A stretch of 49,786 nucleotides of DNA, the filler included, from Jimgerdemannia flammicorona (taxonomy: Eukaryota): the NCBI GenBank assembly GCA_003990765.1. It is 2 parts of 2 records of this genome, joined end to end, with 100 filler letters (N's around TTAATTAATTAA, not from the genome) between each part and the next. Parts side by side here need not be neighbours in the genome. Positions count along the whole stretch, not along the records: positions 24,949 to 49,786 come from RBNJ01000915.1; 1 more part is not named here. One strand, written 5' to 3'. Position 1 is the stretch's first letter, and each line of letters opens with the position of its first letter. Both the position numbers and the translations under genes were made by a program. Shown here in pieces: positions 24,166 through 46,866 of the stretch. The notes below the pieces were generated by a model. That model was not told the DNA's origin, searched no databases, and worked only from the letters and a program-made list of their open reading frames with translations.

Positions 24166-24225
24166 TTTCTGTTCCTTCTTTCCTTCACTTGATAGGGTAG
24201 TATTTTGAATAATATCTTCTACTGC

Positions 24226-24698: not shown

Positions 24699-24729
<31 letters not shown>

Positions 24730-24848: not shown

Positions 24849-24948
24849 NNNNNNNNNNNNNNNNNNNNNNNNNNNNNNNNNNNNNNNNNNNNTTAATTAA
24901 TTAANNNNNNNNNNNNNNNNNNNNNNNNNNNNNNNNNNNNNNNNNNNN
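24849..24948. other. Artificial 100-bp scaffold spacer (N44-TTAATTAATTAA-N44)
   Basis: N runs flanking a linker that places stop codons in all six frames. Confidence 0.97.
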
Positions 24949-27500
24949 TTTTATAGTCACTTAGACTTCTCTTTATTACCTCAATCTATAATAATAATAC
25001 AATATCACCTGCCACACCCCCTCAACCAATACCCCTCAGATCTCTCTCTCTATCCTCTATCTCTCTCTATTGGAGGATAACTCAGTCACCTACCACCCAA
25101 ATCCTCTCCCCACTTTTCTGGCAAATACTATTTACCAAACTCCAATGGCTCCCCCCACCCAGTCCCTACCCTCTCCACCAGCCATTCAAAGTATCCAATA
25201 ATAGCCATTCTTAATATACCACCCTAGCCCCAATCCCAACTTGCTAGCCCTCCTCAAATACATATAGCCAATGCCTGGCCAGCCTAACCCAAAATACCAG
25301 AGCCCAATCCAGGGTCAGCCATTCATCCCCAACCCCTCCCACTAGCCTTCAGTAGAGCTCTCCCCATCTTCCCCACTTCCCCTCTCACCAAGGCTCACAG
25401 TTCTAACCAGTCTGCAATGTGGCACCAAAACTCCTCTAAAATCTCACACTCACTAAGCCAATATTCAGGCATTTGTACCACTCTCCCTTCCTGTCCAACA
25501 TCCAAACATTCCTTACACTCAAATGTACCAAGTGTCCAGACTAATAGTTCAACATCACATTCCACCTCAGAAACTACCACCATACCACCCAGAACTTGGG
25601 GAAAAGCCACCACATCACCTGCTTGCTCCAAGGCCAAAGACCATTCCAGTCCCACTCCCCACCAATCTCCACTCTCTGCCATGCTTTAGGCCACAGGTCC
25701 CCCCCTAAGCCCTGTATATACTCTATTCTATCACCAAGCCAGAAGTTTGTCACCAGTATACCACCCAGCAGTAGCCTATTCCATCTCCACATCTGCAGTC
25801 TCCACTCCTTCTCTCTCTCATCACTCTGCCACCAAAGTCTAATTCACCTAGCACCATCTACCACCCCTCACCAAAAGCCCTTATACCATAATCTCTTGCT
25901 CCCATCCAGGGCCACCATTACAAGCATATCACCAGATATTCCCTGGGGGGAATACTAGGCCTCCCACACCTGCTGTATGAGTGGTACCTACTCTTGGCCC
26001 CTTAACTCACTTGCTCTCTTCAGCCACCACATTCTCAAGCAATAAAGGTATTTGATAAAGTCCATCAAGCTTAACCTGCCTCTGTCTACAGGTAGAGTCA
26101 GAACCTTCCATCTTATCTGACTTCACCACCCAGCCCATATCCATGATCTTGCCATCTTTAGAAGACACCTGACTACCCATACTGGGAAGTCCAGATGATA
26201 CCTCACATACCATAGCTTTGGCAGCCAATATACATTCAGCACTATCACCCTTCCTGCCAGAGATATATACTGACCACCCCACCATAAGAGCACATCACTC
26301 TATACTAGGAGTTGCTGTTTCTACCAAACACAGGATAGAAGAGACCCATATACCAAGAAGTAGATTTCCAGGTAATGAACTGGATCATCTGCTGATACCA
26401 ACATTTCAATCATATTACTACCAACTATTCTACTGCCTAGCACCAGAGTCTTACACTTGTACCAATTGAGTCTAGCACCAGAGCCCCTCTCATACTATTT
26501 CACAGTCCTCCTTAATTCCTCCACATCTGCCAATGAACTCAGTCTGACCACCATATTATCCACAAAGGCCCCCACCTTCTAATTAATCCCCAGAATGTCC
26601 AAACCACCAATTCGATGCCTGATCCTATCCAATAGGGGCTCCAAGGAAAGGGCATATAAGATGGGTGACAAAGGATTATCTTGTAGCACCTCTTGACCAA
26701 GTGGAAAGATCACCCCCCTATGTCCATTGACTACCAGTGCTGCCTGACTGTTTTCCAAAAGACTGATTAATGACCTCCTGAACCCTGGGAGAACACCTAC
26801 CCATTTCAGTACCCCCTCCAGCCAGATCCTCCTCACTCTATCATATGCCTTCTCCTGATTCAGAAATACTAATCTGCCATCAATCCCAGTAGCCCTAGTT
26901 CCTTCAATCACTCCATGGACCCAGGCCATCCTATCTCTGATCAACTGACCACCAACAACCCTCTTTGCTCTACTCCCAGCACTTGCTGAGTAATCCCCTG
27001 CAGTCTAGTCACCAAGACCTTCATCACCAGCTTGTGGTCCATGTCTAGGAGTATGATTGGTTGCCAGTTCTTCCAATCTTCCCTTCTCCCCTTATCCTTA
27101 TAGAGCAAGGAGACCAGCCCTAGGTGCTGGCCCCCAATCCAAGTTCCAGACTGAAGAACCTCATCACACATTGCCATCAACTCCTCCAATACTACCTTTA
27201 CCCTGGCCATCTTTTTCCAAAAATTCCAGGGCAGTCCATCTTCTCCCAGAGTTATCCCCTTGCTTGTCAAAGCCAGAACCTTACAAATTTCCTCTCCCCT
27301 CACTGGGTCCCCCAGAGTTCCCAAGCCCATCACTGGATTCAGATGCCAATCCTCCAACTGTCTTTCAATGTTTGAGACATTCTTACTCTCTTCTTCCTCA
27401 CTCCATAGATCCTCTCAGTGGAACTTTAGTAATCTCAGAATTGCTGGAGTCTCCACCACCATCTCCCCATTCTCATCTAAGAGACCATCCCACTGCTGTT
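24949..27500 (-). mobile_element. LINE family C copy 1: 3' end and RT region, 5'-truncated, degenerate
   Basis: Poly(T) remnant, ATAGTCACTTAGACT and TTTATT. ORFs with GEDGLPW, NQEKAYDRV, PLSPILYALSLEPL, CKEC...PEYWLSEC. Confidence 0.85.
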
Positions 27501-27539
27501 TAGTTCACCATGCTTGTAGTATCTACAATAAAAAGCATC

Positions 27540-30500
27540 ATATTCTGCCTTAGGAACCTCTACCATACTACTCAAAACTTGGGAGACAGCTACTGCATCA
27601 CTCTCTTGCTCCAAAGCCAAACACTATTCTAGTCCCACTTCTCTCCAATCTCCACCCTTTGCTACACTTCAGGCCACATGTCTCCTCCTAGCCCCTGCAA
27701 GCATTCCATTCTATTACCAAGCTGAAAATTCTCCACCAGTGTACCTCTCAGCAGTAGCCAGTCTCATCTCTATATCTGTGGTCCCCAGTCCTCCTTCCCC
27801 TCATAACCCCTCTACTGAAGTCCAATCCTCCTTACACTATCTACCACTCTCTACCAAAAGCCTTTGTAATACATCCTCTTGCTTCCATCCATGGCCACCA
27901 TTGCAAGTAGGTCACCAGTCACTTCATGAGGGGAGTACCGGGCCTCCCACACTCTCTACATGAGTGGTACCCACTCCCAGCCTCTTAACTCACTTTCTCT
28001 CTTCAGCCACTATGCTCTCAGACAATATAGACACTTTGTAAAGTCTACAAAGCCCAGCCTACCTCTGTCAACAGGTAGAGTCAGAACCTCCCAGTCTATC
28101 TGACTTTGCTACTCAGTCTAAATCCAGAATCTCACCATTTTCAGAAGTTGCCTGACCACCCATCCTGGGAAGTCCAGATGATATCCTACATATTATAGCT
28201 TCAGCAGTCAATATACATTCAGCACTATCATCCTTCCTGCCAAGGATATATGCCAACCACCCCATCTTAAGAGAACATTCCTCTATACTATTAGCTGCTG
28301 TTCCCACCAAGTATGGGACAGAAGAGACCCATATACCAAAAAGTAAATTCCCAAGTATCAGACTGGTTTCTCTACTAGAACTACTGTTCCAATCACATTG
28401 CCACTGACTATTCCACTGTCTAGCACTATAGTCTCACATTTGTACCAATTGAGCTTAGTACCTGAGTCCCTCTCATCTATTTTACAGTCCTTTGCAATTC
28501 CTCTACATCTGCTAATGAACTCAGTCTAACCACCATGTCATCTGCAAAAGCCCCCACCTTCCAGTTAATTTTCAAAATATTCAAACCCCCAATTTGATAC
28601 TGGATCCTGTCCAATAGGGGCTCTAAGGAAAGGGCATATAAGATAGACAATAAAGGATCCTCTTGTGGCACCCCATGTCCTAGTGGAAAAGTCATACCCC
28701 TGTACCCATTCACCACCAATACTACCTAACTATGTTCCAATAGACTAATTAATGACCTCATGAACTCTGGGGGAAATCTCACCTGTTTCAGCACTCCTTC
28801 CAGCCAGACCCTCCTCACCCTATTATATATCTTCTTCTGATTCAGAAATACTAACTGACCATCAACCCCAGCTGCCCAAGCTTCTTCAATCATCCCATGG
28901 ACCCAGGCAGTTCTATCTCAGATCAACTGACCACTAACAAATCTCCTCTGCTCCACTCCTAGTATCTGTTGAGCAATCCTCTACAGCCTAGTCACCAAGA
29001 TCTTCATCACCAACTTATGGTCCATGTTGAGGAGTATAATTGGCCACCAGTTCTTCCAATCTTCCCTTCTCCCCTTATCCTTATAGAGCAAGGAAACCAG
29101 CCCTAGATGCTGGCCCCCAATCTAAGTTCCAGATTGAAGGACCTCATCACTCATTGCCATCATCTCCTCCAATACTACCTCCACCCCTGCCATCTTCTTC
29201 CAAAAATTCCAAAGAAGCCCATCCTCTTCTGGGGCTGTCTCCTTACTTGTCAAAGCCAAGACCTTGCATATCTCCTCCTCCCACACCAGGTCTCTCAGTG
29301 TCTCCAGTCCCAAAGCTGGGTCTGGATACCAATCCTCTAACTACTATTCAATGTTCATGGCATCCTCACTCCCTTCTTCATTACTTTATAAATTTCCCCA
29401 GTAAGTTCTCAGCATTCTCAAAATCTTCAGAGTCCCTGCCACCATCTCTCTATTCTCATCCAAAATACCATCCCACTACTGTCTGGTTCTCCAAGCTTGG
29501 AGTAATTATGAAAGAAATCTAGTAGGCCTCTCTCCCTCCTCTAATCCCTACTACTACAACCTCACCCTCCTCTAATCTCTACCACTACAACCTCACCACT
29601 ATCCCCTTTAGCTGAACCTCTTCCTCCATTTGTAATACTTCCTTTAGCTCATCTACTTCTTTTTATATCCACAGAATTCACCAATTGGCTGTCCCCCTAT
29701 CCTCCAGCAACCCTGCCCACCTCTCCAGAAGCACCACTAATCTTCTTGAAGCCCAAAGTACTCATTGCCACCACTGAACACTCCATCCTTTCTCTGCCTC
29801 CCTCTAGTACCTCTGAGCACTGAATTTTAGCTGCCACCAGTAATCCCAATCATCAATCCCTATTCCCACCATCTACCAATTTTTGCAATAACATCCACCT
29901 CTCAGTCTATCTATAAGGAACCATCCTCCAACAAAGAAGAATTCAGTCACCAATGTCCAGACCCATCCCCACTTCCCCCAAACCTTCTACTCCCTAATAG
30001 ACCCCAGTGGTCTGACCACAGGCACCAAACCACCTCTAGTGTATCCCAGACATTTACTCTCCAGTACTCCACCATCAACATCCAGTCAATCCTGAAGCCC
30101 AGCCCTGCCACTCAGTGAGTATAAATTCAGTGCTACACCCAAAAATGTCACTCTGAGTCAACCAAGGAGCTCAACCTCTCAATCTCTATCTAATCTTCTA
30201 ACCTGTTACTTCTGCCTCTCATACCTCTCCCATCATCAGTCCTGTCTGCCCCATTATTATATACTATGTTGAAATCACTCCCCAGGTAGTCAATCCCTGT
30301 CTCATCCATAAAACCAGTCTCTCTCAAGTCTCTTATTCAATCTATGTGTTCCCCCCTCAGTAGTATGACCCAACAGTCAAAGAGTTCCACCCAGGCCTCT
30401 TCTATACTCCCCACACCAACCTACTCTCCTAATGTCCAATATCTCCAATGTCCCCCATCTCTTTTTGAACCAGAATGCCCACCCATCACATCTATATAGC

Positions 30501-32685
30501 TGCTCTACCCCATTTACTAGTCTAGTCCTACAAGTCCATATTGATCTCATACCATATATTCTGTAGTAAGAATAGATCTACATCCAGTCTCTTCAACCAG
30601 TCAAATATATTTCTATACCATACTGCTCCCTCAACCCATTCACATTCAAAGAAAAGATTCTAGTTATACTATTCATATTGAATAATATTTGATATTGAGG
30701 GTCTAGTCTAGAATTCCATACTCATCTCATCACCAGTAAGATCTAAGTGCTACTCTGCCTCTAACTCACCCTTCACTATAGCCTGAGCATTCAGTGCTTT
30801 CAAGATTTCCTGACACTCCACCCCATCTACAACCTCTATATCTGTCTGATAATCTATACATACCACTCTCCACTTCTCCTACCCCTTTCTTGAATTCCAC
30901 AAGTATGCTGTCTGGTCATTTGCAATCCCTCAAAGGGCCTCCTCTCTCTGATCATCTACTTAATATTCCTCTGACTCCAAGAGCACCACCAGGATCTCAT
31001 TTCTAATCTTCTTCAGCACCTTCTCCCTATGGAGGATTTCCTTTCAATGCCAATCACTTAGAATCTAAAAGTCCTCTCCTCCTAGCTCCTCAGCCACCAC
31101 TCCCTCCAGAGTCTTCCACAGCTACTTCTCTTCATCCACTGCTTCAGCAACACCCTGGGCAACTCCTTCAACCTCCACCACCAGGTCCATCAAGGCGTCT
31201 CTCCTCCTTGACTCATTCCACTCCTCCTCTAATACATCCAGTAGTTCCTCCTCCCCACTCTCTCCACTTGGGACATCATACTGAGGGCAGACTTCCTCAC
31301 CCATTTCAGCATCCTCTACCATGCCACCTAGACCCTCCTCTCTTGATTCTCTCTGGGCTGCATTCTGGGCCATCCTGTGCTCTCCTACCCATATACTCTC
31401 CATCAGTATAGCACCCTCTTCTCCTACACTATTACCTTCTACACTCTCTCCAAACTTCTTTAGTAGCTCCTCTGGATTCGCCTCTCCTGCACTTTCTCTC
31501 AGATCACCCAGTTTATTCTGATCTTTTTTCCATTCACAATCTCCACCACTGTCTTAGCTTCATACTCCTTCCAAGCCAATTACCTCCTCTCCACTACTCC
31601 TGCCAGATCCTCAAGAGTCTCCAGCAAGTCTTTCTCTTCCTCAAGCATCCCCTTCACCCTTGAAACCTTATATTCCATATGTCCCCACTTAAGGGTCACT
31701 GGTCAATCCCTTGCCTTCCCAGTACTCTCCTTCTCTGCCAGCCTTACTCTGACATCAACATCTCTCATCTAGAGTTCAATACTCTCCCAGACTCTAAACC
31801 CTATGTCTACAATTTTCTCATATTCATTTACCACCTCCATAATCAACTCTCTAGCCTTCTCTCTTGATACTATAGACAGATTGAATACCATCAACTGCAC
31901 CACTCAGGGGTCCCAGTGCATATATCTGATCATAGAGACCACTACTCTGCCCACTACTACTCTCTTCTCCACAGCCTCCAATAATGATTCCTCTTCCTCA
32001 AATCCCACCTCGACCTCTTCTTTCTCCTTCAAGAACTTTACCAAAGCTGCTCCCTTCACCTCCTGCATCACCAGCCCCAAAATATCCTCACAGTTACCGC
32101 TAAGTCTTAGAAGTACAATGTAATAGTGAATTCTGATCTCAACTTTTTGAGTAATGGTACTGAAACTATATCTGTCATACCATCTGCCAGATCCCCAGAC
32201 CTTGTGCCCTCCCTCTGTCTTGATCTGCCAACTACTATCATATCTGAATTTTTTTTCCAGATCCTCAGTCACAGCTCTATCAGCAGTCATACTTTCACCC
32301 TCTCTCTACTGCCCAACCCTCCCATGAAGGCCCCTCCCTGGCCCCTAACTGAAGCTGTCAATGCCTTCCCTAGTCCCAACCAACTATCTAGACCAGATGC
32401 CATTCTCTCTATCTTGACCTTATCAGCAAAGGTCATCCTCTCCCCTTCTCATTGCCTCAATCCACCCCTCCCTCTACTACCAATGATACTATGACCAGCC
32501 ATAGAAGGCTCTGGCATCCCCAAACCATCTCCCCTTCTCCTGATATACTGCTAGTCAAAGGCACTGCTGCCCCTCTGGCTGGTACACTCATCAGTATATT
32601 TGTTGCTGTTTATGTCAATAGTCTTCTTTCACCAAAAATGTTGCAAAAAGTGTTGTCTGAATCTTGTGTCACCTGAATGTTACTG
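27540..32685 (-). mobile_element. LINE family C copy 2: 5' UTR, ORF1, APE and RT; 3'-truncated, strongly degenerate
   Basis: 27540-29490 parallels 25560-27500. GVPQEDPL, AFADD; ORF2 start MNSITRIFSLNVNGL at 30676; ORF1 relic (LVKFLKEKEEVEVGFEEE...WDP) at 31904-32290. Confidence 0.85.
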
Positions 32686-32989
32686 GCTAATCCCATAACC
32701 TCTGGCAGAGAGTCGAAAAGTGGTGTTTATGGGCTGGTATCTTCTCTATATATTTTGGTGTGATGGTGAAGGGTTGCTTCTTTTATATAGAGCAAGGGCC
32801 TGATTCTGATCTTGACTAATCAGTTAATGATTCGAACTCCTCTGACTTCAAAAGTCTCATGGATGAGTAGTTGCTAGTGCTATATCCCTTAGAGAATGGT
32901 CCAGACAGATTGTCTACTAGTTATGAGACATACTCTTATAATTTGCAGACTAGAATCTCATGGACAGTCATCATATTTTACTTCTCTTA

Positions 32990-34596
32990 TATAGGTTCAT
33001 AGTACTTCTTGAGTCTATTCCTATATACCATGGTAGGCAATATGGTCTCTAAGAGTTTTCTAAGCCAAAAGGTAGTTTCCTTGATATCTTACACATAGAA
33101 GAGTCTTTCCCATTTGGGCTCCAGTTTTTATGACTATGAGGTTTCTATCATATTTCAATACAGTAGAACCTTTTCTCTGATTTGGATAGGTTCTAGGGTT
33201 TTATAATTCTTTTCTGCATTCTTTTTCATCAGTACTTATGACTTGATAATATAATCTTCAGCCTTCTTCCTGATTTGGTATAGTCTCCAGATTTCTGAGT
33301 CAACCTATCTCCAAGTTAAGTCTAGATTTGTAGCTGAGGTACCATTGGAATCTTCTTCTCTGAAGAGCAGTTCTCTTGAGGTAAAGTGTGTACTCTGTGA
33401 CTGTATGTCTTATAGGATAGAGAGGGTGGTTGGGAGGTAGTTATTCCAATTCTTATATATGTTTGAGATCTTTACCAGGATGTTCTTGAGGGTCTTATTG
33501 GTTCTCTCTGTCTGTCTATTTTCTTGAGGATGGTATGTGGTGGTCTTGATGTGCTGAATCTTGTATTTCTGATACATTATCTCATGAAATCCATTGGCAA
33601 ATTCAGTGCCACAGTCTGTGGTAATTTACTTTGGTATCTTGTAGCAGCAGATGATTTCTCAGTGCAGGAAGTTGACTATAGAGAGGATATTGACTTCTTG
33701 TAATGCTCCTGCTTCTATCTATTTGGTAAAGAGGTCTACAATAATTATAATGTAGTAGTTTTCTAATAGTGTTACTGGTAGTGGCTCAATGATATTCATT
33801 GTGATGTGGTGAAAGGAGATAGGCTCAATTCTTGATAACTCAAGTACTTGGTCTTACTGATCTTGTTTCTGTTTTTGGCACTTGTCATATTCTTTGACAA
33901 ATTGGTGCAGATTTTCTTCTATCTTGGGCCACCATATGATTCTTCTTACCTTAATATATATTGGTTCCTTCTAGGTATCCTTGTTCATATACTTCCTTCA
34001 TTACTTGATACTTCTTATATTCAAATATTACAAGCTTTCCTCCTTTTCTGAGTATGGTATTGTCTAGTGCTCTCAATGAATCGAATCAAATTGTATTTGG
34101 CCCAAACTCGATTCAATTCGATCAAATCAAGGGTCCAATTCAATGCGATTCAAATCAAATCAAAGGTCCAATTTGATTTAAAGTTCGATTCAAACCTTAA
34201 TTTTCAAAATATAATAATTCGATGAAAACACATCCAAATTTAATGTATTTTAGCTTGTTAGATTCACTGTATTAATGTGATTCTAACAAGCTAAAGTATG
34301 TTAGATTTGGATGAGTTTACGCTGAGTTATTGCATTTTGAAATTTAGGGTTCAAATCAGACCCTCAATTCTATTTGACTTTTGATTTGATTCGAATTGAT
34401 TCCAATTGAAAAATCCCCAATTCGATTTGACTCGTTTAACCCTCAATTCGATTTGATTCGAATTGATTCAACTCATTTGGGAGCACTAGTATTGTTTAGT
34501 TCAAACTGTTTCCAAGTCTAGTTGATAATGATGATTGTCCAGAGTTTAAGATGGTTGGGTATCTTCTACTATCCAAGATAGCTGATTAATCCATAG
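32990..34596 (-). pseudogene. Second Gypsy integrase relic, interrupted by a MITE and cut by the hAT element
   Basis: Nucleotide colinearity with 20170-21336 (TGGTCTTGATGTGCTG, TCTTGAGGGTCTT, TTGGGCTCCAGTTTT); ends NRLKKY. Confidence 0.85.
34065..34488. mobile_element. Palindromic hAT-type MITE (424 bp)
   Basis: TAGTGCTC...GAGCACTA termini; 8-bp TSD GTATTGTC/GTATTGTT; the two halves are imperfect inverted repeats around ~34272. Confidence 0.93.
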
Positions 34597-34887
34597 TAGT
34601 GCTCTGAATGGATGGAGTTGATCCAGATGAGATTCGATTCAGATTCATCATATGGTGGATTCGAATCAACTCAGATTGGTCTCGTGATCTGATCTAGATT
34701 AATCTGGATTGATCTAGATTGATCCATCTGGATTGATCTATCTGGATTGAAATCTTTGGTGACATCACCCTTTCTTTTGTTCATTTCACTCTTGTTTTTT
34801 TTTTTCTGCTGCACTTTGGTGACATCATCCTTTCCTTTATTCCCTCTCTTTTTTTTGTTCTTTTTCTTTGTTCTTTCCTGCCGCATT

Positions 34888-37013
34888 ATGAGCAAACAAA
34901 ACAGCAGCCTTTAATTCATACATTGATCCAGTCTACTCATTTTTCACCCTACAATGATCATCAAAAGAGAGAGTATTCAAGGTGGAAATGTACTCTCTGC
35001 TGACAATGTTAGATGCTTTCTCATATGGACAGCACACAAGCTGCTCATCGAGAGCCAAAGGAGTGATGGTGGTGGTGGTGGCAATGGCAATGGCAGAGAT
35101 GAGGGAGAATTCTGGCAACAACTCACAGTGGCCCTTCAGACCTCAGAATTCACAGACCTCACAGCTATGTATGCAGCAGCCTTTTTGGAGCAGCTGATAG
35201 TAGATGTAGGTTGCTCACTTAGCTGCCACTTGTTTACTTATGTTTATTTAAACTTCTCCAGCACAACCCAATTCACCTTGTGCTTATCTTAGGGTCCACA
35301 GCTCTATGGTGAGATCTGCCAACTTTTTTCACAATATCTGGTCAAGATGAAGAAAGGCTGGTAGATGTTGTGGGGTATGCCTTTGGTGGCTAAGCTGTTG
35401 TGTCAATGCATCGCATGGTGGAGGTCTCAAAAGGAACAGAAGCAAGCCTTCATGAGCAATCTTATGCAACTCATGCAACTTGTGCAACTCATTGGTGTGC
35501 AACTCATCAGCATGCAGCTTACTCACTCATGCTCTTTTTCAAAAATACCCATCTCTATGTTTTATTTAATTTCATTTTATGTGGTCTCCCCCTAAAAAAC
35601 ACCCACACCCACACACAACCCATCTGTATGCAACCCACTCACATGCAACTCACTCACATGCAACCCACTCACAACCCACCCATACACAACCCACCTGCAT
35701 GCAACCTGTCTGCATGCAACCCATCTGCATGCAACCTGTCCACATACTTATCTTGGTCCCTCAGATCAGGGCTCAGTTCCATTGGAAAGGAGAGTTCAAA
35801 GTTACCCAAGTTCCACCACATCCAGTGTCTGATCAAATAGAGAAATTCGAGGGCAAGATGTTCAGCATGAGCAGTACTAGCATCATCATCAAGGCTTGGG
35901 GGTCTACTTTCAAATCAGAGCCAATCATACTCAACCAAGAGGTCCATTGGCCAGCAGGAGTAACCAATGATGAAAAGAACCATATCTTTATTAATGAACA
36001 TGGAGAGGTGGTTGTGATGGTGGTAAGAAATCTCTATGGTGATGAGCTTTGCCACCACATCAATGAGATTTGCAAGGATTGCATCAAATACTGGGTGGCA
36101 GGAAAGAGGGGGCAAAAAAAGCAAGGAGGGGGGTTTGGATGGGAATTGGGTATACTACAACACTGGCGAATGGTGGGTTCTGGAGTTCCGAAATCCCCTG
36201 CACTCATCTCACTTTTTTTTTAACCCCTCTCCAGATAAATCACACTCTTTGTGGACATACTCTTTTTGATACAATTCTAGAGATGTATAAGATTCTATAC
36301 CCCTACTGGAACTTTAGAAGTGCCATCAAAGAGCAAACTATGCATGAGCATAACATGACCTGTGTGGCAATGGTGGCTATGATCTGGGGTTCTTTGAGCA
36401 GATTGGTAGAGTGTATAGCAGGCCAGCTTGGTGGTGATCTCAGTGCTGCTGTATGTACATTCTTGGTACAATTTAGTGTGCCATATGAGGTAAGGAGCTC
36501 CACTTTTTTGGGGTGCTGCAGCCCAAGGGATTTCTGCAGCCCAGGGGGTTTCTACCCCCCCACATGCAAAAAGGACTGACCGGTTACCATCCATTTTGAC
36601 AGGTTTCCAAGCCAGGGCTCCTGGGGCTGGACCAAGAGCAGGCATCCACCAGCACAGCCTGGCAGTATGAGGTCCTGGGCCAAGGGTTCATCCAACTGTA
36701 TACTCACATCACATCAGGATATATCGGGTGCAACCTTTCTCTGCCTATACACACAGATAACAATGTCACACTGGTAATGTTTTACATTCCAGAAAGGAAG
36801 GGCCCAACCTGGGAAGATAGTGGCGGAGTCTGGTATGACCTCACCTATGGTTTTGGGGTCCCATTTGTGGCCAACACAGCCATCCTATTCCAACTACATG
36901 ACCACTACAGCACCATCACCTTTGAGAAGAGCTCGGACACAACAGTCATCATACTCACAATGGATGATAGGCTCATCAAGGCCTGGGACCAGCAGGTGGA
37001 GCAGTTTTTGTGA
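34888..37013 (+). pseudogene. 5-exon cargo gene, putative TET/JBP-like Fe(II) dioxygenase (~490 codons; this copy disrupted)
   Basis: Exons 34888-35205, 35293-35451, 35765-36094, 36235-36489 and 36603-37013 join in frame via four phase-0 introns. PIHTDNN (HTD 36750-36758), GGVWYDLTYGFGVPFVANTAILF, LHDHYST. Stops in exons 1-2; intron-2 donor reads ATGAGC. Confidence 0.6.
35461..35745 (+). repeat. ATGCAAC-core short tandem repeats in intron 2 of the cargo gene
   Basis: Repeated ATGCAACTC / ATGCAACCCACTCAC / GCATGCAACC units. Confidence 0.8.
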
Positions 37014-37298
37014 GGGTTAGGCAATCTTTCATGAGGGTTAGATAGCCATTTGGTACAGATTGGGCAGTCTTATATGGGGGGGTTGGGCTGGGCACCTCTT
37101 ATGTAGCACTAGCTTAGCTGTTATGCAGGGCCCTACTGGCCCCTCAGCCCTGCTCTGTAGTGCCACCAGTGTGGCACTGTGGCACAGGGCCAGGGTACCC
37201 GTGAGACCCAAACTAGTGACTTTGACCACCAGAAATGCCCTCTGACTGCCAGAAGCACCCTCCGACCACCAGAAGCACCCTCTGCCCTGGACTCCTTA

Positions 37299-37760
37299 GC
37301 AGCTTGGAGCTGCCCCTATGCTGCTGGTAGAGGGCTACAAATTTTGCATGCTCCCTCTGCCTGCCTCACCTGTCTCGGACACTTGCAGCTTGGGGCTGCC
37401 CCTTGCTGCTGGCAGAGGGCTGCAAATTTTTGCATACTCCCTCTATCAACCCTGCGCCTGCCAACTGATCCTGCCCACTGACCCAGGCGCTGACAGCTTG
37501 GGGCTGCCCCTTGCTGCTGGTGGAGGGCCACAAATTTTGCATGCTCCCTCTACCTACTCCTCTGACCTGGACACTTGCAGCTTGGGGCTGCCCCTTACTG
37601 CCAGCAGAGGGCCACAAATTTTGCATGCTCCCTCTGCTGACCTGCCCACCAACCTACCAACCTGCTCACCAACCTGCCCACTGACCTGGACACTGGCAGC
37701 TTGGGGCTGCCCCTTGCTGCTGGCTGAGGGCTGCAAATATTGCGCACTCCCTCTGCTGCT
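37299..37760. repeat. Five GC-rich ~58-bp repeats with variable spacers between the convergent genes
   Basis: Core GCAGCTTGGGGCTGCCCCTTGCTGCTGG.AGAGGGCYRCAAATTTTGCATGCTCCCTCT at ~37299, 37385, 37493, 37577 and 37696; mirrored at ~49580-49745. Confidence 0.88.
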
Positions 37761-37891
37761 ACCACCAACCCCACCCCACTTTGGCTGCAAACTCCAGGCC
37801 AAGTTCTCAGGTTTTTTTTTTCTTTTTTATTATTTTGAAAGGTATTAAATATTCCATAAGACCAACCAACTTATCCGCAACCCACCAAATT

Positions 37892-40503
37892 TTAGTGGCC
37901 TGAGCCCCACCAAGACTTCAGACACATACATACCCGGATTATCTCAGCATTCAGTACACACCTCTTTGGAGCAACAAGGTCCACCCCACCTGAGAACAAC
38001 TACTCGATGGGAGTGCTGGAGGTAGAAATCGCCAGGTAGTCCCAAGCCATACTACACAGGCTGGAGAAGTCCATTTGACACAGCTGTATGCTCCAGTGGG
38101 TAGAGCAGTGGTTAGATTGGTGGGTTAAATTGGCCCAACACCTGCCTGACAACCCACCTTCCACCAGTTGACCACCTCCATACCCTCTAGCAGGACCATA
38201 TAGTTGCTGGTGAGATAAATGATAAGTTCATCTATTGATGGCAGCTCTTCTACTGACAGCTCCCTCTTCCTCTTTCTGCCAAAGTAAATATGGGACAGGA
38301 GGAATCCCTTGGCATATTCATCCAGACTTTGGCCAGAACCTTGCGGCAATGTGTAGTTTTTCTAGTACACTTCAATTATGGCCTGCTTGGTTCTCTCAAT
38401 GAAGTGCTGCTCCCAGCCCTGATCTTTATGGTATTGTAGCTTTAAGCATAGGTTCAGCACTATTTAAAGAAAAGGAGAGTGAGTTTTTGCAGGATTTCCT
38501 CTGTTTTGGAAAGAGCAATGGCCAAATGCCAACATTGACATACCTGTACTGATTGAGTATACAGTGGTATCTGTTTGGGAGTAGTATTTTCTGAGCTTGC
38601 TTAGAGCAATCTCCATGGTGTCTCTCTGATCTGGGCTTAACTGCAAATTACTGCAACTCTTCAGCCTATCCTCAAGCTTGTCCTCTAGCTGGTCAATCAG
38701 AAGGTTGTATACTGGTATTGCAGAGCTTATTGTCAGGGTCATTTGTCTGACTATATCCTTCATACAATTGTTGAAACACTAGCAGTTATATGTGGTGAGG
38801 TGTTGTATTGTGCAGAGGCTGACAAAATGAGTGTAGAGCCAGAGCAACCACTACTTACTTCCAAAACTCTGACAACATTTCTAAGTACATCCCACTTGCT
38901 TTTACCTAGAGCCTTGGTCCATATTTCCTTATTGACAGCCATCATTGAATCTATTGGCTTTTTTTTTTTTTTTTTTTTTTTAAAATAAATCTTCTATCAT
39001 CCGAAACAGTTGCTTCAGCTGACCAGAGAAAAAAAGGATACATACTACAGCAAACTCTAGCATGTGCTGGATCATTGCAAATGTTGAGTTCCAATACCTA
39101 CAGATATCCAATATAAGCTCTTTCGGGGCTAAACTGATTGCCCTACACTGTGCAGTGAATTTGTCTCATCATTGTAGAGATGATCGGACTGACACAACCA
39201 GTTTGTGCAACTTGGAAATTATACTCAGGGCCCCTCCTCTCTCAGATATTTATCTACATACATAAGATAGTCCTGAACAGTGAGGTTCAGTACATGGGCC
39301 TGGCATTACACACAATAGCTTTCTGTACCAAAGACCACAGTTTCCTGTTTGAGGCTGACTGCAAAAACTTGGAAAAATATTGAGTTGTTTGTGACATTGT
39401 CTGTTGTAATGGCCAAAATCTATACTTGAAATATTTGATTGACAAATTTATGTGAAAATAAGTAACCAATAAAATCTGGTTTGGTTTAGGACCTCTCTCA
39501 AAATACCAATCTGATGGCAAGCCCCCCTTTTTTACCTTAGTGGTGATCCCAAGCTCTCAGATATAACTAATAAAAGCATCTGTGATATTGTCTCCAGAAT
39601 GAGGGCCAGCAAGTTTGATGAAGTCAAGGGTGAGAGATTTAAGCTACCAATCAAGATCAATCCAATGACCAGTAATACTCAAAAACAAAATTACATTGGG
39701 GGATGTCCATGTGTCGATCGTAAATGAAATTTTGCCTGCCGAATTCTGTTATTGAATATGAGGTTAAATTGGTGAGCTCTTTTATATAATTTAGCTTGCA
39801 AAGGTCATAGTGCTGCCCTTATTTTACCTGAAGTATCTGGTGGAGATTGTTGTGCTCCTTCCTATAGGCCTCCAGGACATCTTTGCAAATAGTATTGGTA
39901 CTTGGCAAATATAAATCATACTTGAGGAGACCAAAGATACTATGTAATTGATCACTCTTGATGGTTGTGAATGGCTGGTCTGTGTACACAATCCAGCAAA
40001 TGAGCCGATTTCGAAATTCTGCCAAAGAGTATGTCAAAATATTTTTGATTAAATGGTGTTGTTGGTATAGAAATAGTTGGGCAATCGGATAAACATACCC
40101 ACCACAGCTTAGATGTTTATTTTATTTATCTCTGTATTCTTTTTGATTTTGTCAGAGTACTTGTCTTTTATGTTTTGATTCATATTCGAAGTTGTACCCC
40201 CAAGCATTTTGAACTTCTGGCTGATGCAGTTTATGGGGGTGGATGAAACAATATCATGTGTGTGTCAAAACAATATCATGTGTGTGTCAAAACAATATCA
40301 TGTGTGTGTCAAAACAAACAAAGTGTCAATAGGTGTGTCTTAATTTTTTACCTGCAATAATTACAAACAACATCATCTCTTATCTTAGCACAATGTTGCC
40401 AGATTTCAGAGTGAGGATTGCATGGAAGGTGTGGAACTATCAGGGATGTTTGACTTGAAGCATCATCAGTACTGTGAACTGTTGAAGACTGATCTGTCAA
40501 CAT
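37892..40503 (-). pseudogene. hAT (Ac-like) transposase, multi-exon, disrupted
   Basis: BED finger (EIWQHC...CNYC/GTTSNM), DQPFTTI, ISFTIDTWT, ITTDN, CQAHVLNL, RYWNST, C-terminal DYLAISTSSTPIE*LFS; about 8 GT-AG introns. Confidence 0.92.
40246..40311. repeat. 22-bp tandem triplication in transposase intron 1
   Basis: AAACAATATCATGTGTGTGTCA x3; single unit in copy 2 (~47051-47072). Confidence 0.92.
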
Positions 40504-40599
40504 ATGTGTTTGTATATATGTGTGTGCATGTATATGTGTATGTGTGTATGCATATATGTATATTGTATTGTAGATGTGTCCAGCATATGAGTCATGTAG

Positions 40600-40980
40600 A
40601 GGATTTGGATTGGAGGATTCAGTTGAAGGATTCAGATGAGAATTCGGATTGAAGGATTTGAATTGGAGGATTTGAATTTGAGGATTCAGATTGAGTGATT
40701 CAGATTGAGTAATTTGGATTGAGTAATTCAAATTGAGTGATTCAGATTGGGGTGGTTCAGATGGGTGATTTGGATGGGACAATTTGGATGGGGCAATTCA
40801 GATTGAGTGATTCAGATTGAGTAATTTGGATTGGGGTGATTCAGATGGGTGATTCAGATGGGGTGATTCAGATAGGGCAATTCAGATTAAATCCAAGTTG
40901 ATTCAGATGGCTTTGGATTTGAGATTTGGATCAAACCATCATGTAATGAATCAAATCTGGATTTGATTCAAATTGACTTG
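40600..40980. repeat. hAT subterminal repeat array (GATTCAGATTGAGT-type), probable transposase-binding sites
   Basis: Dense GATTC/GATTT motifs next to the TIR; mirrored at 46385-46765. Confidence 0.8.
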
Positions 40981-40992
40981 TTCAGAGTACTA

Positions 40993-43320
40993 TTTAGAAA
41001 TTAAGAATCAAAGAAATTATATACTAAGAGATTGATAGTAAGAATTAAAAAGTAATATATATTAGTCATTCAAAATGAGAAATCAAATTATTACTCATAT
41101 TTGATAATATAATATCTATCAATATTATCAACAAAAAGTAACTCAGAAGATATCTCTTATTTCAATACTAGTGATAGTTAGAGTTTTCTCAAGACTAGAA
41201 ATTGATATTATTAAATCTTTACTAGTTATATATAAGATAAAAAAAGTAATATATTCCTATAATTGAAAATTATTTTACTAAATAGCTTAAAGTTTTTACT
41301 CTAAATATAGATTAATATTTATATAATTGTCCGAGTTCTTTATGATAATGTTTTCTTATTATATAATTTATTATAAAAAATAATTACAGAATAAGAAAGC
41401 AAATTTATTAATAAGATTATATAATCTTTTAAATTCAGAATTAAACTATGATAGGTAATAGCTTATTATCTATAAGTAAAAAGGTTGACATAGTACTTTC
41501 AAATAACTTGAATTAATTTAAATTAAATTAAATTTTAATTGAACCAATTTGGAGATTTTTCAATTTAAATTAAATATAAATTAAATTGAGATATAATTTT
41601 CTTTTATTCAAATTGAATTCAGATTTACTTTGATTTTAAATTAAGAGTTAACCTTTAAAATACCAAATATAATTATCTTTATTATTCTAGATTCTTCTAG
41701 ATAAGATAAATATAACAAACTAAATTTTATCAAATTTGAATCACTAATGATAAAACTTATTTCTAATAATAAAGCAAAATTTGCTAATAAAATATTTAAG
41801 CTTCTTAAATAACTTTTAAAATATCTTCAATATATTATTAATGTTCAATAATATAAAATATTTTTTGTTTTCAGATATATCTTTTCAAATTACCAATAAT
41901 TATATTTTGCTTTTCTATATCTTTTAATACTTTTTATCCAATCTGTTGATATCTGAATAGATCTATAATAATATAAAATAATAATTTACTATATATATAT
42001 AATTATGACTCTGCTTTAACAAAATATCAATTATAATAATAGACTGATTCAGTATAATATATTATCTATAACTTATCAATCTGAATAATATCTATAGTAT
42101 AATTAAAGTCAATAAATAAACTTATATCTGTTATTACTAATCACAATATTGTTAATAATTATATCTTAATAGAAAACTCCAGTAATAAAGAGATGATGAA
42201 ATATTATAATAATATTATATAATATCTAAAGTAGCTATTGATTATTGAAGAATTTAATAAAGAGTTTACCAAGGATAAAAGTATAATATAGCTATAGAAA
42301 CAGTCAACTGGGTCTATACTGGATACTTTAGATATAATATAGTCTATATAAGATTCAGTCTCAAGCTCTTGTAGTTATTAGTGAGATATTATTATGATTT
42401 TTTATCAATTTTAGATCTAGATTTCTTTATACTAATTGGTTATTCCAATTTTTGAATAGTTAGCAATGAGACTTTACTATTACTACTCTAAATTTAAATT
42501 AGATGAGTAAAAGGCCTAACAGGTCAAGAGTGAGCCTGCAATATAAGATTGTCTCTCATATAATATGATTTTAATAATTATATCTCAATAAAAAAAGGTT
42601 GAATATATATAGCTAATAATACTCATCTAAATGGATTATAAGTTTTTGAGAGATATGATATATCTTCATATTATCTCAAGGACAATTTTGTACTAAAGCT
42701 CTAGAGTAATAAGAGAATATAGCTAGATATTTGACTATTCTATTAGTATCTACTAAGCTATCAGAATACTTATATAAATAAGAAAGAGTCTCTTTGATAA
42801 ATTCTATATCTATATAATAAATAAGTCTAAATTATATTAGATTTAAAATAAAATGAGAATTTGATTAAATCTGATAATAATAGAATATTAAAATTATGGA
42901 ACAGTCATCTGCTATTATAGGTATTATCAGAGCAACTATGAGTTAAGTATGAGCTATCATAATTGCAGAGAAGGCAGATATTTCAGGAAAGTATTAGCAT
43001 ATCTAGAGTGAATTAGTTATAAATGAGAGAAGCTAGAACCTGTTCTCTTTTAGCCTCTTTGACATACTAAGTATATATATATATATACTATAATAAGTAA
43101 ATATTATATTAGAGTCAGATAATATATAAATTATATAGTATAGTTATCTTATATATATAGTTACTCCTTATACTATCTATTGAATAAATAGTCTGAAATA
43201 CTAAATTAGAACAAATTTTATATTATCAAGAGATATATATACTCTGAGGAAATATATATCTATACTCTGAGAGAATATCTGTTCTCTGAGGGAATATCTT
43301 TCTAAATTAATCTTACTATT
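40993..43320. other. Extremely AT-rich relic TE DNA, including a decayed MITE-family end at 41491 and possible Gypsy pol remnants
   Basis: TAGTACTTTCAAATAACTTGAATTAATTTAAATT at 41491 aligns to the MITE right end almost entirely via C>T/G>A changes; no ORFs >=60 aa. Confidence 0.55.
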
Positions 43321-44699
43321 GTAATGGTGATCTCAGAATAGTGACATCATCATAGAAGATAGTCTTTTCTTATAAGCTACCAGATCAGAGTACAAGAAAA
43401 TCATACTACATAACTCACCCTAACTATAAGATAAGCAATAATGACCAACTATAAGTTATTATCTACAAGACAGACATCTCAAGGAATATAAAAGAAGGAT
43501 TGAGAAACTGCAGTAGTAGCAACTCAAACAAAGCTCACCATAAACAAAATGCCTACCACTTACCAAACCTCAAGGTCCAGGAATCACCAAGGCCTCTCAG
43601 TCTAAGAAAGGATATTTCAAAACATTAAAAGAGCCAGGAGGACCTATATAAGAAGGACTCCTAGCTTCAACCTAGATACTAGTGACCCTTATTATTATAT
43701 CCTCTACTATCATAAAATGAAAACAAGAATCACTATTGTACCAAATGTCTCCAGATATGGTAGAAATATGAAATAAGAAATCTTCTCTGCTAAGAATTCT
43801 CTTAGGCCAGTCTCTAAGAGATATAAGATGCCACTCTCTTAGATGTATATAAAATAAGGATAGCCAAGAAGATTTATCAGATCTTCAGACATACACTGTG
43901 GTCAATTCCCAACTTGGAGTATACTAGAATCTCAGACTTCAAGAAATTATCAGCCCACCATACCAATGTACTGGAGGCCATAATGGCTACAGAAGTCCAA
44001 TTCACCATCACTCTTGATAGTGATGAAGTAGAAGAGTTTTGGAATCCCATTCTTCAGGACAATCCAGATCAATTTCTACAAAGATTGATCTCAATATTCC
44101 AAGGCCCCAGTATCTAGGTTAGATCTATCCAAGACTCTATATTTATTTCTTATTTTGTAGAAGAGAATGTCATAGACTAAAGAGCTCCTGCTGCTACTAA
44201 ATAAGCTGATGTCACCTATAATGATGTCATTGATGATAACATTATCCCACTAATTGATATACATGACATATGTGAGATATAAAAAATATGTAAGATAAAC
44301 AAGATACTCAAAATGTTCACCAACCTCATTTTCTTTGAAGACATCCTGTCTCTAACCTCTAGCCTTGATAATAGTGACAAAGATGAAGCCCCCATAGTTC
44401 TGAACATTCTGCTTTAAGTTCTTGATAATACCAAAATATTCTGGCATCCTTTTTCTATGTAACTGAATTCTACTGGCATCCTTTTTCTATACTATCAAAA
44501 TCTACTAGCATCCTGAACTTATTTAACCATTTGTATAGGAACTCAAATTTGTACTTATAACTGAAGTTTTCTATATTCCAGTATTTTATTTGATTATTGG
44601 AATTTATATTTAGCTTTATAACTTAGTAACTATTAAATTATATTTTGTATAAATACCTCTCTTATTTCCTTGAAATAAAGTCAGTCAAGTTCACTTATA

Positions 44700-46370
44700 C
44701 TCAATTCTATATAAGCAATCTAAGAGATAACAAAACAGTTTAAAGATAAGAAGTTTGAGGACTATAAGATCTTGTGAAGACACTCTAATAAGAACTTGCT
44801 TTTTTAACAAACTTGTAGTTTGTCTAAGAGATATACCTTGAAGAGAATCTGATATATTTGATCCTCCTTCTATAGTTATTTCTTGTCTTGCAATTCCACA
44901 CCTTGAGGTCAGTTGGATGTAAGCTTCTTGGGGTAGCTATATGGCTAATCTAGTTCTGATCATGAAGATTTTTCCAGGCTTGATAGATTCATCCTCCAGA
45001 CTATGAAGATCATATCCTACATCCTCTGGGTGGGCTTTGGTTGGGAGTTTGGCCTTGAGATGCAGCAGGGTATACTGAGCAATATTCTTGCTGAGTTTGG
45101 GCTGACTTAAGGCTGAAGCTCCACTAGCAGAGAGCCTCTAAGCTCTAAGATTGAGGTGTGGCCATCTGGCTCCAATAGAGGGGTCTCAGAAATAGTTGAT
45201 TCCTCTTCTTCCTGTAGGGTCTAGGGCTTCCATGAAGTTGGTGGCATCTTCTACCCATACTTGACAGGTTGTATATCTGATGAGAGCTAGAATGTCTTCT
45301 CCTAAATAATAGATCTTGAGAGTCCTTCTTTCTGGCTTTTTGGTCTGGCTTTTTTGGATCTGGCTTCAGTTATCTCTTCTCTTCAAAGTGTGGATTGCAA
45401 CATCATGACTGAGATGGATCTTCTGATGTCTGCAGTCTCAGCAGTCTGGGTGTCTTCTATGGTTGCAATATCCCATTGCTTAGAAATGATATTCTCAGTT
45501 GTTGAACTCTTGTTGTCTTGAGAATTGATATCTATCTTGGTCATAAGTTGGAAGAGTAGACAAGAGGTATAATTCTGTCCAGATGAAGAGACCATGTCCT
45601 CTGAATCAGCTTTGCAACTCAGTGGTAACTTCTTAGAAGGTAGTTGACTGTAGAACTATATTCAGGAGTTCTGGTCTCTGGGGTCTCTATCTCTCCTGTT
45701 GGTCTAGTAGATGGCACTGATAGTAGTAGTCTCAGGGAGAGTGGAAGACTATTTGGTGTAGACATCTTCCTAACTGAAAAGCCTTTTCTTGATGAGTTTC
45801 TTTCTTAGGGATAATGGTAATTATGCTGGGTCCATCTTTCATATTCCAAGGATTATTGTCTTCAGTTGGTGTCTAGTGAGAGTTATCTCAGGGAATGAGT
45901 TCAGGGACTTCTTTCTCTTTGGGTACTTCTTGTTCAGAAACTTCTTGATCAGGAGCTTCTTCTTCCTTAGATGATTCTTGTCTCCAAATTGCTTATACTT
46001 CCACAACTTCAGCTGCAGGTTGTTTCTGAAGCATGTCTGCATTTCTTCTTCTTCTTTCTGCACTCAGAGCAGGCTGTGTCAGGCGAATTCCTTGTGTCTC
46101 TTGAGGCAGGTGGGGCATCCTTTGATTTCTCCTGCAATAGCTCTGATGGTAATAGGGACAGTATTCTTGGCCCATACATTGTTTTCTGGTCTATTATCCA
46201 CTAGGTTAATTTGGGGGTTGAGTCTGAGATCATTTCCATCTTCAGATGCTTCTTCCTTCTCTGTGGTAAACTCTTTACTACTGATATATTCTTCCTAAAT
46301 AGTGACCTTCTTCTTCTTCTTTGATTGCTCATAGCTGGTCACCTTAACTCTGTACTTCTTGCCTCAGTAG
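44700..46370 (-). pseudogene. Degenerate coding relic, probably retroelement-derived, cut by hAT copy 2
   Basis: Purine-rich minus strand with K/E-rich broken frames and an ACSECRKKKKKCRH motif at 46033-46074. No catalytic motif recognised. Confidence 0.35.
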
Positions 46371-46529
46371 TAGTGCTCCAAACAAGTCAATTTGAATCAA
46401 ATCTGGATTTGATTCATCACATGACAGTTTGATCCAAATCTCAAATCTGGAGCCATCTGAATCAACTCAGATTAATCTGAATCACCCCATCTGAACTGCC
46501 CCATCTGAATCACCCATCTGAACTACTCC

Positions 46530-46665
46530 AATCCAAATCACTCAATCCAAATCACTCAATCCAAATCACTTAATCCAAATCACTCAATCCAAATCACTCA
46601 ATCCAAATTACTCAATCCAAATCACTCAATCCAAATCACTCAATCTAAATCACTCAATCCAAATC
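46530..46665 (+). repeat. 14-bp tandem array AATCCAAATCACTC (~9 units) in the hAT subterminal region
   Basis: Read directly from the sequence. Confidence 0.9.
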
Positions 46666-46866
46666 CTCCAATTCAAATCCTCCAATTTGAATCCTCCAAT
46701 TTGAATCCTTCAATCTGAATCCTCATCCAAATCCTTCAAATGAATCCTCCAATCCAAATCCTCTATATGACTCATATGCTGGATATATCTACATATACAA
46801 TATACATACATATATATATAATATATACACATACATACATTTGCACATACAAACATGCAAACACAC

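Follow-up and report, generated by a model that had tools for sequence, protein, structure and literature searches.

The locus examined here raises the question of whether a decayed DNA transposon of Jimgerdemannia flammicorona (GCA_003990765.1) carries a gene for a TET/JBP-like dioxygenase and, if so, which of the described TET enzymes is closest to its product. The window, i.e., the whole stretch of DNA that was analyzed, is 49,786 nucleotides long. According to Kojima 2025 (Biology 14:1741, PMC12730594), transposon-borne TETs comprise three enzyme types in 11 transposon carrier lineages, and a function has been shown experimentally for none of them. The range known so far comprises Pucciniomycetes, Agaricomycetes, and Pezizomycetes. 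Our best explanation, to which we assign a probability of about 0.75, is that the element is a dead member of a multicopy hAT family carrying a putative TET/JBP-like Fe(II)/2-oxoglutarate dioxygenase gene, whose predicted product is nearest to the PE-type TETs of that work.

The hAT-like element (copy 1) occupies positions 34597 to 40992 (~6.4 kb), with 12-mers at both ends and subterminal repeats. Its left terminal inverted repeat (34597 to 34608, plus strand) reads TAGTGCTCTGAA, and its right one (40981 to 40992) reads TAGTACTCTGAA on the minus strand; 14-bp subterminal tandem repeats (40627 to 40877) lie ahead of the latter, and the termini of the element family start with TAGTGCTC. Inside the element, the TET-like cargo gene (plus strand) and the remnants of a hAT transposase (minus strand, from approximately 38000 to 40121) are convergent, tail to tail, as an earlier note on this DNA had described. 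The transposase remnants are fragmented and contain in-frame stops in the ORF list, and the piece equivalent to Dimer_Tnp_hAT is interrupted by a stop. The ~1-kb stretch separating gene and transposase holds four copies of an 81-nt repeat (37367 to 37758; start-to-start spacing of 84 to 119 nt). We could not recognize a target-site duplication at copy 1, whose flanks (ATCCATAG versus TTTAGAAA) differ. The left flank is a Gypsy integrase, which is not continued on the right, where blastn and tblastn gave no Gypsy similarity.

The interior of copy 1 from 37378 onward recurs in inverted orientation as copy 2 (46371 to the window end at 49786, minus strand), with arms that are 84 to 89% identical; the window ends before the cargo gene of this copy. 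Pfam Dimer_Tnp_hAT (PF05699) matches copy 2 at 49125 to 49340 (E 2.6e-5; 24.4 bits, with a cutoff of 21.4). The 12-bp termini are common to copy 1, copy 2, and a small nonautonomous MITE-like relative at 34065 to 34488. This relative lies between GTATTGTC and GTATTGTT, the two halves of an 8-bp duplication that match at seven of eight positions and differ by one transition at the other. Together, the Dimer_Tnp_hAT match on copy 2 and the common terminal repeats support a hAT identity of the predicted carrier, which agrees with the earlier reading.

Decay is evident throughout. The two copies are 85.9% identical and differ by 428 transitions and 48 transversions, and the observed/expected CpG ratio is 0.02 to 0.21 across the window. 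Copy 1 is dead: it cannot work because of a 1-bp deletion in a coding G run, a distal His-to-Tyr change with an adjacent Gly-to-Ser change, and the stops in its transposase. Beyond the window, a single soil metagenome provides 807 contigs that are at least 80% identical and together cover all 30 bins of positions 34597 to 37400, and by these contigs the gene-bearing family exists in many diverged copies.

These contigs also bear on the structure of the cargo gene, which the earlier note had modeled as five exons joined by four phase-0 introns. The peptides that it quoted are all encoded on the plus strand where it had placed them; the model itself fails, since one of its introns is a frameshift and its first two exons are unsupported. 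The proposed start, an ATG at 34888, meets a TAA after eight codons. The first exon (P0004, 34954 to 35205, plus strand) is an ATG-started ORF of 84 codons for which we found neither a Pfam match nor a relative; many family contigs cover its region, and its membership in the gene is unsupported. The second exon could be picked only mechanically by phase 0, among 28 candidates that are all of low complexity, have poor donors, and lack a homologue.

The third and fourth exons (P0003, 35765 to 36172, and P0002, 36283 to 36489, both on the plus strand) form the predicted N-terminal part of the TET-like domain (35765 to 36489), as indicated by the homology between P0003 and the protein P0005 and by a by-eye match to blocks of PE-type TETs. 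An additional G after 36127, which is among the 40 best-ranked of 248 consensus differences, is present in seven contigs that make up 85 of 133 depth units; with this G the third exon runs directly into the open frame of the fourth (ORF 36067 to 36579). The tail of P0005 follows this second frame (8 of 18 residues identical; E 0.001). The supposed third intron (36173 to 36282) is thus most likely an artefact bridging a 1-bp deletion private to copy 1, and the two exons, as read from the contigs, are a single predicted exon in most family copies, which is broken in copy 1 near the G run at 36127. A frame change is still needed between ORF 36067 to 36579 and ORF 36600 to 37013, so the predicted intron at 36490 to 36602 (plus strand; GTAAGG...ACAG, 113 nt) is probable; no indel was seen there among the best 40 of the 248 consensus differences of the family contigs. 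It is followed by the fifth exon (P0001, 36603 to 37013, plus strand; stop codon at 37011 to 37013), which would encode the C-terminal catalytic part.

Homologues were found for both parts of the domain. An exhaustive search of 1.84 billion representatives with the third exon returned three proteins, among them P0005 (E 2.6e-17; 38% identical); the other two, P0006 and P0007, were rejected as spurious, being long NHL-type repeat proteins matched over five to six short stretches. The fifth exon has a metagenome homologue, P0008, at E 1e-61 and 74% identity. The window itself contains a second TET-like gene remnant at 17083 to 18208 (plus strand), very diverged and AT-rich, with an exon-3-like piece (17125 to 17256) that holds a stop and an exon-5-like ORF, P0009 (17762 to 18205, plus strand), which matches P0008 at E 2e-11. 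A hAT-type terminus (TAGTGCTCTGAT, 18558 to 18569, minus strand) lies 350 bp beyond the stop codon of this remnant. The two TET-like paralogues of the window are only 23% identical, and each adjoins the same kind of hAT terminus. Homologues at these E values rule out chance open frames. Word-indexed searches of longer proteins yielded nothing with the fifth exon (0 of 77 candidates) or with the three-sequence alignment (0 of 7,689 candidates). In the JGI metagenomes, a protein-pattern scan matched 286 stretches, none of which was confirmed, and a degenerate DNA pattern for H-T-D-N-N-V-T-L-V matched two loci, both by chance. Scans with Rfam and for tRNAs, run for a clue to the host, gave nothing.

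The alignment of these proteins identifies the putative iron ligands. The first site, H50-T-D52 at 36750 to 36758 in P0001, is identical in P0008 (H-T-D) and reads Y-T-D in P0009. The distal site of the window copy is CAC TAC AGC ACC, i.e., H-Y-S-T (36903 to 36914), in which Y102 and S103 (36906 to 36911, with the Tyr codon TAC at 36906 to 36908) occupy the His-Gly positions of relatives; the corresponding motif is L-H-G-T in P0008 and H-G in P0009. The distal His, ~50 residues downstream of the first site, is therefore absent from the window copy and kept in both relatives. Both Tyr codons (the distal site of P0001 and the first site of P0009) differ from a His codon by a single C>T change, and a test of mutation direction assigned 20 of the 36 differences to C>T or G>A changes in the window copy, the Tyr and Ser changes among them. 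The distal, presumably iron-binding His is a family feature lost in the window copy. The idea that H-Y-S-T arose from x-H-G-T by two transitions, put forward from the window alone, is borne out by the L-H-G-T of P0008 and by the direction of mutation.

In canonical TETs, the 2-oxoglutarate-binding Arg lies ~10 residues after the distal His. No Arg is found at about that distance in P0001, P0008, or P0009, which agrees with a caveat raised earlier that the usual residue is not visible. That caveat holds for the usual place only; an Arg, R123 (36969 to 36971), is invariant in all three proteins 21 residues past the distal His, and in an alignment by eye it falls on the S-S-R-L motif that PE-type proteins have.

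The membership of the cargo protein in the TET/JBP family was not recovered by profile searches. The Pfam profiles Tet_JBP and 2OG-FeII_Oxy, with which the earlier note had proposed to check its claim, and PF20515 gave no hmmscan match to any exon or to P0005, P0008, or P0009 up to an E value of 10. This silence is explained by the PE-type family being almost invisible to profile searches: in Kojima 2025 (PMC12730594), HHpred found CMD1 for PE-type proteins at an E value of only 1.4, whereas structure comparison found CMD1, NgTET, and CcTET at E <1e-5. Searches of PDB sequences, run both with individual proteins and with profiles, returned no dioxygenase, and at most weak WD40-like or OTU matches. 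AlphaFold2 models built on two- and three-sequence alignments were unusable (pLDDT of 35.3 and 36.7), and a Foldseek search with the second of these (pLDDT 36.7) gave no match at E ≤0.001. A protein-language-model search with the fifth exon was more informative: the first family-bearing match was PF20515 ("Tet-like 2OG-Fe(II) oxygenase"; 0.92, 182 of 256 features, six hits), Tet_JBP (PF12851) followed at 0.88, and all matches were eukaryote clusters dominated by Basidiomycota. The same search with the third exon gave no useful match. PF20515 (2OG-FeII_Oxy_6) and PF12851 are thus the nearest named clusters in language-model feature space but are not matched by hmmscan. Similarly, the cargo protein resembles CcTET, NgTET1, CMD1, and human TET2 in its presumed 2-His-1-carboxylate triad and in the ~50 residues from H-x-D to the distal His, but it has no detectable sequence similarity to them and its Arg is off the usual place.

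A closer likeness emerged from a hand alignment, made by eye, with the PE-type domains of Table S1 of Kojima 2025 (PMC12730594). The blocks are collinear by eye across a domain of ~300 residues, and the spacing G-x4-N-x5-H-x-[D/E] before the first His appears identical. The likeness peaks at the distal His (Q-P-x-D-x-H-G-T), where, by eye, an ungapped 33-residue block of the PE-type EnSpm-22_AB ending in H-G-T is identical at 17 of 33 positions to P0008 and at 12 of 33 to P0001. In the GE-V-V-MV-RN block of P0003, 6 of 10 residues are identical to EnSpm-22_AB by eye, and a C-terminal T-x3-R-L-x2-A motif is common to the cargo protein and the PE-type proteins. Both groups are cargo of DNA transposons and nearly invisible to profile searches. 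They differ in three respects: the PE-type hallmark, an H-x-E in place of H-x-D (section 3.4, PMC12730594), is not found in P0001 and P0008, which have H-T-D; a hAT carrier is absent from the five PE carriers given in that source; and the cargo protein is, by eye, ~45 residues longer between the blocks. On this by-eye comparison with the domains of Table S1, the predicted cargo protein has its nearest described relatives among the PE-type TETs known from mushrooms and truffles rather than among the PU-type TETs of rusts, which hAT7 carries. The TET/JBP-like identity claimed in the earlier note is accordingly the most likely one, given the triad of the homologue, the paralogue, the language-model matches, and the collinearity with the PE type.

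TET-carrying hAT elements are already in print for Puccinia, namely, the hAT7 families (Kojima 2025, section 3.1.2, PMC12730594), so that the earlier note was right in stating that capture by hAT in rusts has been reported. Like the window element, these are transposons of the hAT superfamily in which a second ORF is a TET/JBP gene. Their target duplications are 7 bp long, compared with 8 bp at the MITE-like relative in the window, and the terminus of hAT7-1_PGr, the one hAT7 terminus compared, begins differently from that of the window element. Their cargo is PU-type, with motifs such as F-N-x-x-H-x-D and R-x-G-M-S-x-Q that neither P0001 nor P0008 contains. The TET gene of the three described hAT7 families precedes the transposase and is oriented like it, whereas in the window element the two are convergent. 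Among the papers returned by our literature searches, Kojima 2025 alone was directly relevant, and we found none that describes a PE-like TET carried by a hAT element.

Intact family members would encode a protein whose iron triad reads H-x-D ... H-G-T. CcTET as an analog and the argument of Kojima 2025 suggest that this enzyme would oxidize 5-methylcytosine (5mC) in the DNA of its own element, which would benefit the element by countering silencing through methylation as well as the ensuing C-to-T decay. Homology, conserved motifs, the position of the gene within the element, the diverged copies, and the decay of copy 1 are observed directly; the fold, the substrate, and the benefit are inferred from them. 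It is conceivable, if unlikely, that the protein has the same fold and belongs to the same family but modifies another base or attaches another group (e.g., by hydroxylating thymine, as JBP does; by oxidizing 6mA, of which CcTET is capable; or by transferring a glyceryl group, the reaction of CMD1). "Demethylation to escape silencing" would then be an incorrect or partial description. Kojima 2025 leaves another activity possible for the PU and PE types (section 3.4, PMC12730594) and places CMD1 among the closest solved structures, and the odd position of the conserved Arg, together with the missing Pfam Tet_JBP match, points to active-site surroundings far from those of canonical TETs. However, the element shows CpG-type C>T decay, which is exactly what 5mC oxidation would counter, and the one fungal relative that Kojima 2025 names as assayed, CcTET, oxidizes 5mC.

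A more radical doubt concerns the family itself. Three independent lines of evidence agree: the triad positions are conserved and their losses are single transitions, the language model points to PF20515 and Tet_JBP, and 17 of 33 residues around the distal His are shared without gaps with a published PE-type sequence. In addition, association with DNA transposons is typical of fungal TETs. These observations make it improbable that the cargo is a conserved beta-rich protein other than a dioxygenase that merely mimics H-x-D...H, with the PE type also misassigned or the resemblance convergent, even though the profile and structure tests were all negative or unusable, the PE-type link was made by eye, and the PE-type assignment rests on one author's structure comparison (Kojima 2025, PMC12730594). 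The notion of the C-terminal 35 residues as a stray WD40 repeat, or of all the ORFs as chance frames in transposon DNA, is effectively refuted by the E values of the homologues and by the paralogue-extended profile: residues 96 to 134 of the fifth exon have weak WD40-like matches (phmmer, Pfam), including the designed repeat protein Tako8 (summed E 1.2e-8, with single stretches at i-E 90 to 270) and beta-propeller profiles at E ~0.1, but every single stretch is nonsignificant and the match disappears once the paralogue joins the profile (0 hits).

The preferred reading, a hAT-borne TET/JBP-like gene nearest to the PE type, makes this locus a new combination of carrier and cargo within a published pattern and not a new principle, a TET-bearing fungal hAT having been described in 2025; it extends that pattern and raises no new question. 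What it adds is an ordinary hAT of the 8-bp type with a PE-like predicted enzyme that keeps H-x-D. We tentatively suggest, at a little under even odds, that the cargo represents an undescribed TET-like clade, a sister of the PE type with the ancestral H-x-D and a long-standing partner of the hAT lineage with 8-bp duplications. If so, hAT would be a twelfth carrier lineage, and there would be a sequence bridge from the orphan PE type to the canonical TETs; the sequences of this locus may in this way link the hard-to-place PE type to the remaining TET family. Among mobile elements, transposons with a TET-like gene of their own are the best candidates for active removal of the host's methylation mark. 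In both TET-like remnants of the window, C-to-T transitions turned a presumed iron-binding His into Tyr, in DNA that is nearly without CpG, and the decay of copy 1 illustrates what a TET-like enzyme is supposed to prevent.

The earlier note had described a TET/JBP-like gene of five exons inside a hAT transposon, and the peptides that it quoted are indeed encoded where it placed them, with the gene convergent with the transposase. An exhaustive HMMER search with exon 3 (35765-36172, plus strand) against 1.84 billion representatives returned three proteins, of which P0005 (128 aa) is a true relative (38% identical; E = 2.6e-17) and two long NHL-type repeat proteins were set aside as spurious. 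Exon 5 (P0001; 36603-37013, plus strand) has a relative of 136 aa, P0008, with 74% identity (E = 1e-61); P0005 and P0008 were each found on a short metagenome contig. The cargo ORFs are not chance frames. The proposed gene model fared less well: the ATG at 34888 is followed by TAA eight codons on, and exon 2 can be picked from 28 phase-0 candidates, all low-complexity with poor donor sites. Exon 1 (34954-35205) lacks a homologue or family match among Pfam and the in-window relatives. The third intron is probably an artefact: among soil-metagenome contigs aligned to 34597-37400, seven, with 85 of 133 depth units, contain an extra G after 36127, with which exon 3 reads straight into the open frame of exon 4 (36283-36489; ORF 36067-36579), and the P0005 tail matches this second frame (8 of 18 residues identical; E = 0.001). 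Exons 3 and 4 are therefore one exon in the family, and the window copy is frameshifted. The 113-nt GTAAGG...ACAG interval upstream of exon 5 is a plausible candidate intron. Within 36283-36288, the T of the window at positions 36286 and 36288 is C in family contigs; the Tyr after the exon 4 Met is therefore a His-to-Tyr change private to the window copy.

The H-T-D motif is the same in exon 5 and P0008, and D-H-Y-S-T in the window aligns with D-L-H-G-T in P0008. The window Tyr (TAC) and Ser (AGC) can each be derived by one transition, from His and Gly, respectively; the suggestion that H-Y-S-T arose from x-H-G-T by two transitions is thus supported by P0008. Exon 5 and P0008 differ at 36 residues: only C>T or G>A on the side of the window copy can account for 20 of these, only such changes in the other lineage for 6, and neither for 10. 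R123 is invariant across P0001, P0008, and P0009 (an exon-5-like ORF of an in-window paralogue) and has a counterpart, seen by eye, in the PE-type proteins of Kojima 2025 (PMC12730594); it is a candidate 2-oxoglutarate (2OG) ligand, at an unusual spacing from the distal His.

Pfam profiles gave no match to any exon, relative, or paralogue, even at an E value of 10. In PDB sequence searches, the last 35 residues of the exon 5 protein drew nothing beyond weak, single matches of WD40 type; this reading was rejected, as the matches disappeared with a three-sequence profile. AlphaFold models reached pLDDT values of 35.3 (two-sequence alignment) and 36.7 (three-sequence alignment), and Foldseek found no match with the latter. 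In a protein-language-model search with exon 5, the top unnamed clusters were basidiomycete, the first family-named cluster, sharing 182 of 256 features at a score of 0.92, was PF20515, "Tet-like 2OG-Fe(II) oxygenase", and a Tet_JBP cluster followed further down the list (0.88); the same search with exon 3 returned nothing. Motif logic, the paralogue, the language-model search, and the literature indirectly support the TET/JBP-like reading.

According to Kojima 2025 (PMC12730594), there are three types of transposon-borne TET, which have only H, D/E, and H conserved in common. Divergence of the PE type is such that its best HHpred E value to CMD1 is 1.4, and its AlphaFold-database models still match CMD1, NgTET, and CcTET at E <1e-5. 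Compared by hand with the sequences of Table S1 of that paper, the cargo protein appears collinear with PE-type domains and shares the G-x4-N-x5-H-x-[D/E] spacing and a C-terminal T-x3-R-L-x2-A. In its block G-E-V-V-V-M-V-V-R-N, 6 of 10 residues agree with EnSpm-22_AB. Over an ungapped 33 residues up to H-G-T, 17 are identical by eye in P0008 and 12 in the window copy. However, the cargo has H-x-D, whereas the PE hallmark is H-x-E; the PU-type motifs in the same source are not present in the cargo protein.

The carrier, copy 1 (34597-40992; 6.4 kb), was delimited by its termini and shared subterminal repeats: the 12-mer TAGTGCTCTGAA lies at both ends, with one mismatch at the right, and the subterminal repeats are alike at the two ends. 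From 37378 on, its interior has an inverted counterpart between 46371 and the window end (copy 2), the arms being 84-89% identical. Fragmented transposase frames occupy 38000-40121 (minus strand) in the ORF list of copy 1, and the copy 2 counterpart of one piece matches Pfam Dimer_Tnp_hAT (E = 2.6e-5; 24.4 bits; cutoff, 21.4). A 424-bp non-autonomous relative with the termini of copy 1 (34065-34488) is bordered by the 8-bp duplicates GTATTGTC and GTATTGTT, which differ by one transition. No target-site duplication is recognisable in the flanks of copy 1, and a Gypsy integrase continues in its left flank, not in its right. Inside the right ends of copies 1 and 2, a 14-bp GATTCAGATTGAGT-like tandem repeat forms arrays of 12-13 copies (40627-40877 and 46458-46723), which may be transposase binding sites. 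The facing right ends are separated by a very AT-rich 5.4-kb spacer (40993-46370; GC, 16-42% per kb), in which similarity to the Gypsy element left of copy 1 was not found.

In one soil-metagenome run, 807 contigs, whose depth does not equate to copy number, match 34597-37400 at ≥80% identity (65 at ≥99%, 218 at 95-99%, 345 at 90-95%, and 179 at <90%), covering 30 of 30 bins, the cargo gene body included. The breadth of these identities shows that there are many diverged copies that contain the cargo gene. A second, very diverged TET-like remnant lies at 17083-18208 (32% G+C; one in-frame stop). Its ORF P0009 aligns with P0008 over 132 residues with one gap (E = 2e-11) and retains the distal His-Gly and, after the first site, T-D-x-[DN]-V-T; Tyr replaces the first His, one C>T step. 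Another hAT-type terminus, TAGTGCTCTGAT, follows 350 bp after the end of its stop codon. Relative to the adjoining terminus, the remnant is oriented opposite to the gene of copy 1.

Copy 1 and its cargo gene are dead because of the 1-bp deletion, the distal-ligand His-to-Tyr change with the adjoining Gly-to-Ser, and the transposase stops. CpG is nearly missing in the window (observed/expected, 0.02-0.21). Copies 1 and 2 differ at 476 of 3,382 aligned sites (428 transitions and 48 transversions), including 83 CA/TG doublets, as is typical of independent CpG decay, and a further 139 differences that set TG or CA against TA.

The window consists of eukaryotic repeat DNA. A Ty3/Gypsy-type retrotransposon (19796-24762, minus strand) encodes zinc knuckle, reverse transcriptase, RNase H, and integrase domains, and its pol region includes a dUTPase domain (PF00692; E = 1.3e-19); dUTPase-bearing Gypsy elements are known from basidiomycetes. 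Just past its gag end lies an N run (about 24850-24950), seen as X in an ORF translation. The small hAT relative and copy 1 both break up a second, partial Gypsy copy (32998-34055), which is 68% identical to the first. The stretches 1-16300 and 25000-33000 hold long repeats spaced at about 10.5, 6.4, and 4.15 kb, with an extreme strand bias, the plus strand being C-rich (GC skew, -0.28 to -0.57), low CpG (observed/expected, 0.02-0.21), and low-complexity frames rich in proline and serine.

TET genes within DNA transposons, hAT among them, are already in print (PMC12730594). In that paper, the Puccinia TET+ hAT7 elements carry the PU type, whereas the carrier here has 8-bp-type termini and is no hAT7, its cargo is PE-like, and cargo and transposase are convergent. 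What sets this family apart is the 8-bp-type carrier, the PE-like H-x-D cargo clade, the convergent order, and two deeply diverged paralogues by like termini; literature searches found no report of an 8-bp-type hAT combined with a PE-like H-x-D TET. Intact family members would encode an Fe(II)/2OG dioxygenase with H50, D52, and the distal His as its triad. This enzyme might possibly act on a substrate other than 5mC. By analogy with CcTET, and following the argument in PMC12730594, the TET-like enzyme would oxidise 5mC on its own element and may thereby oppose silencing and deamination.
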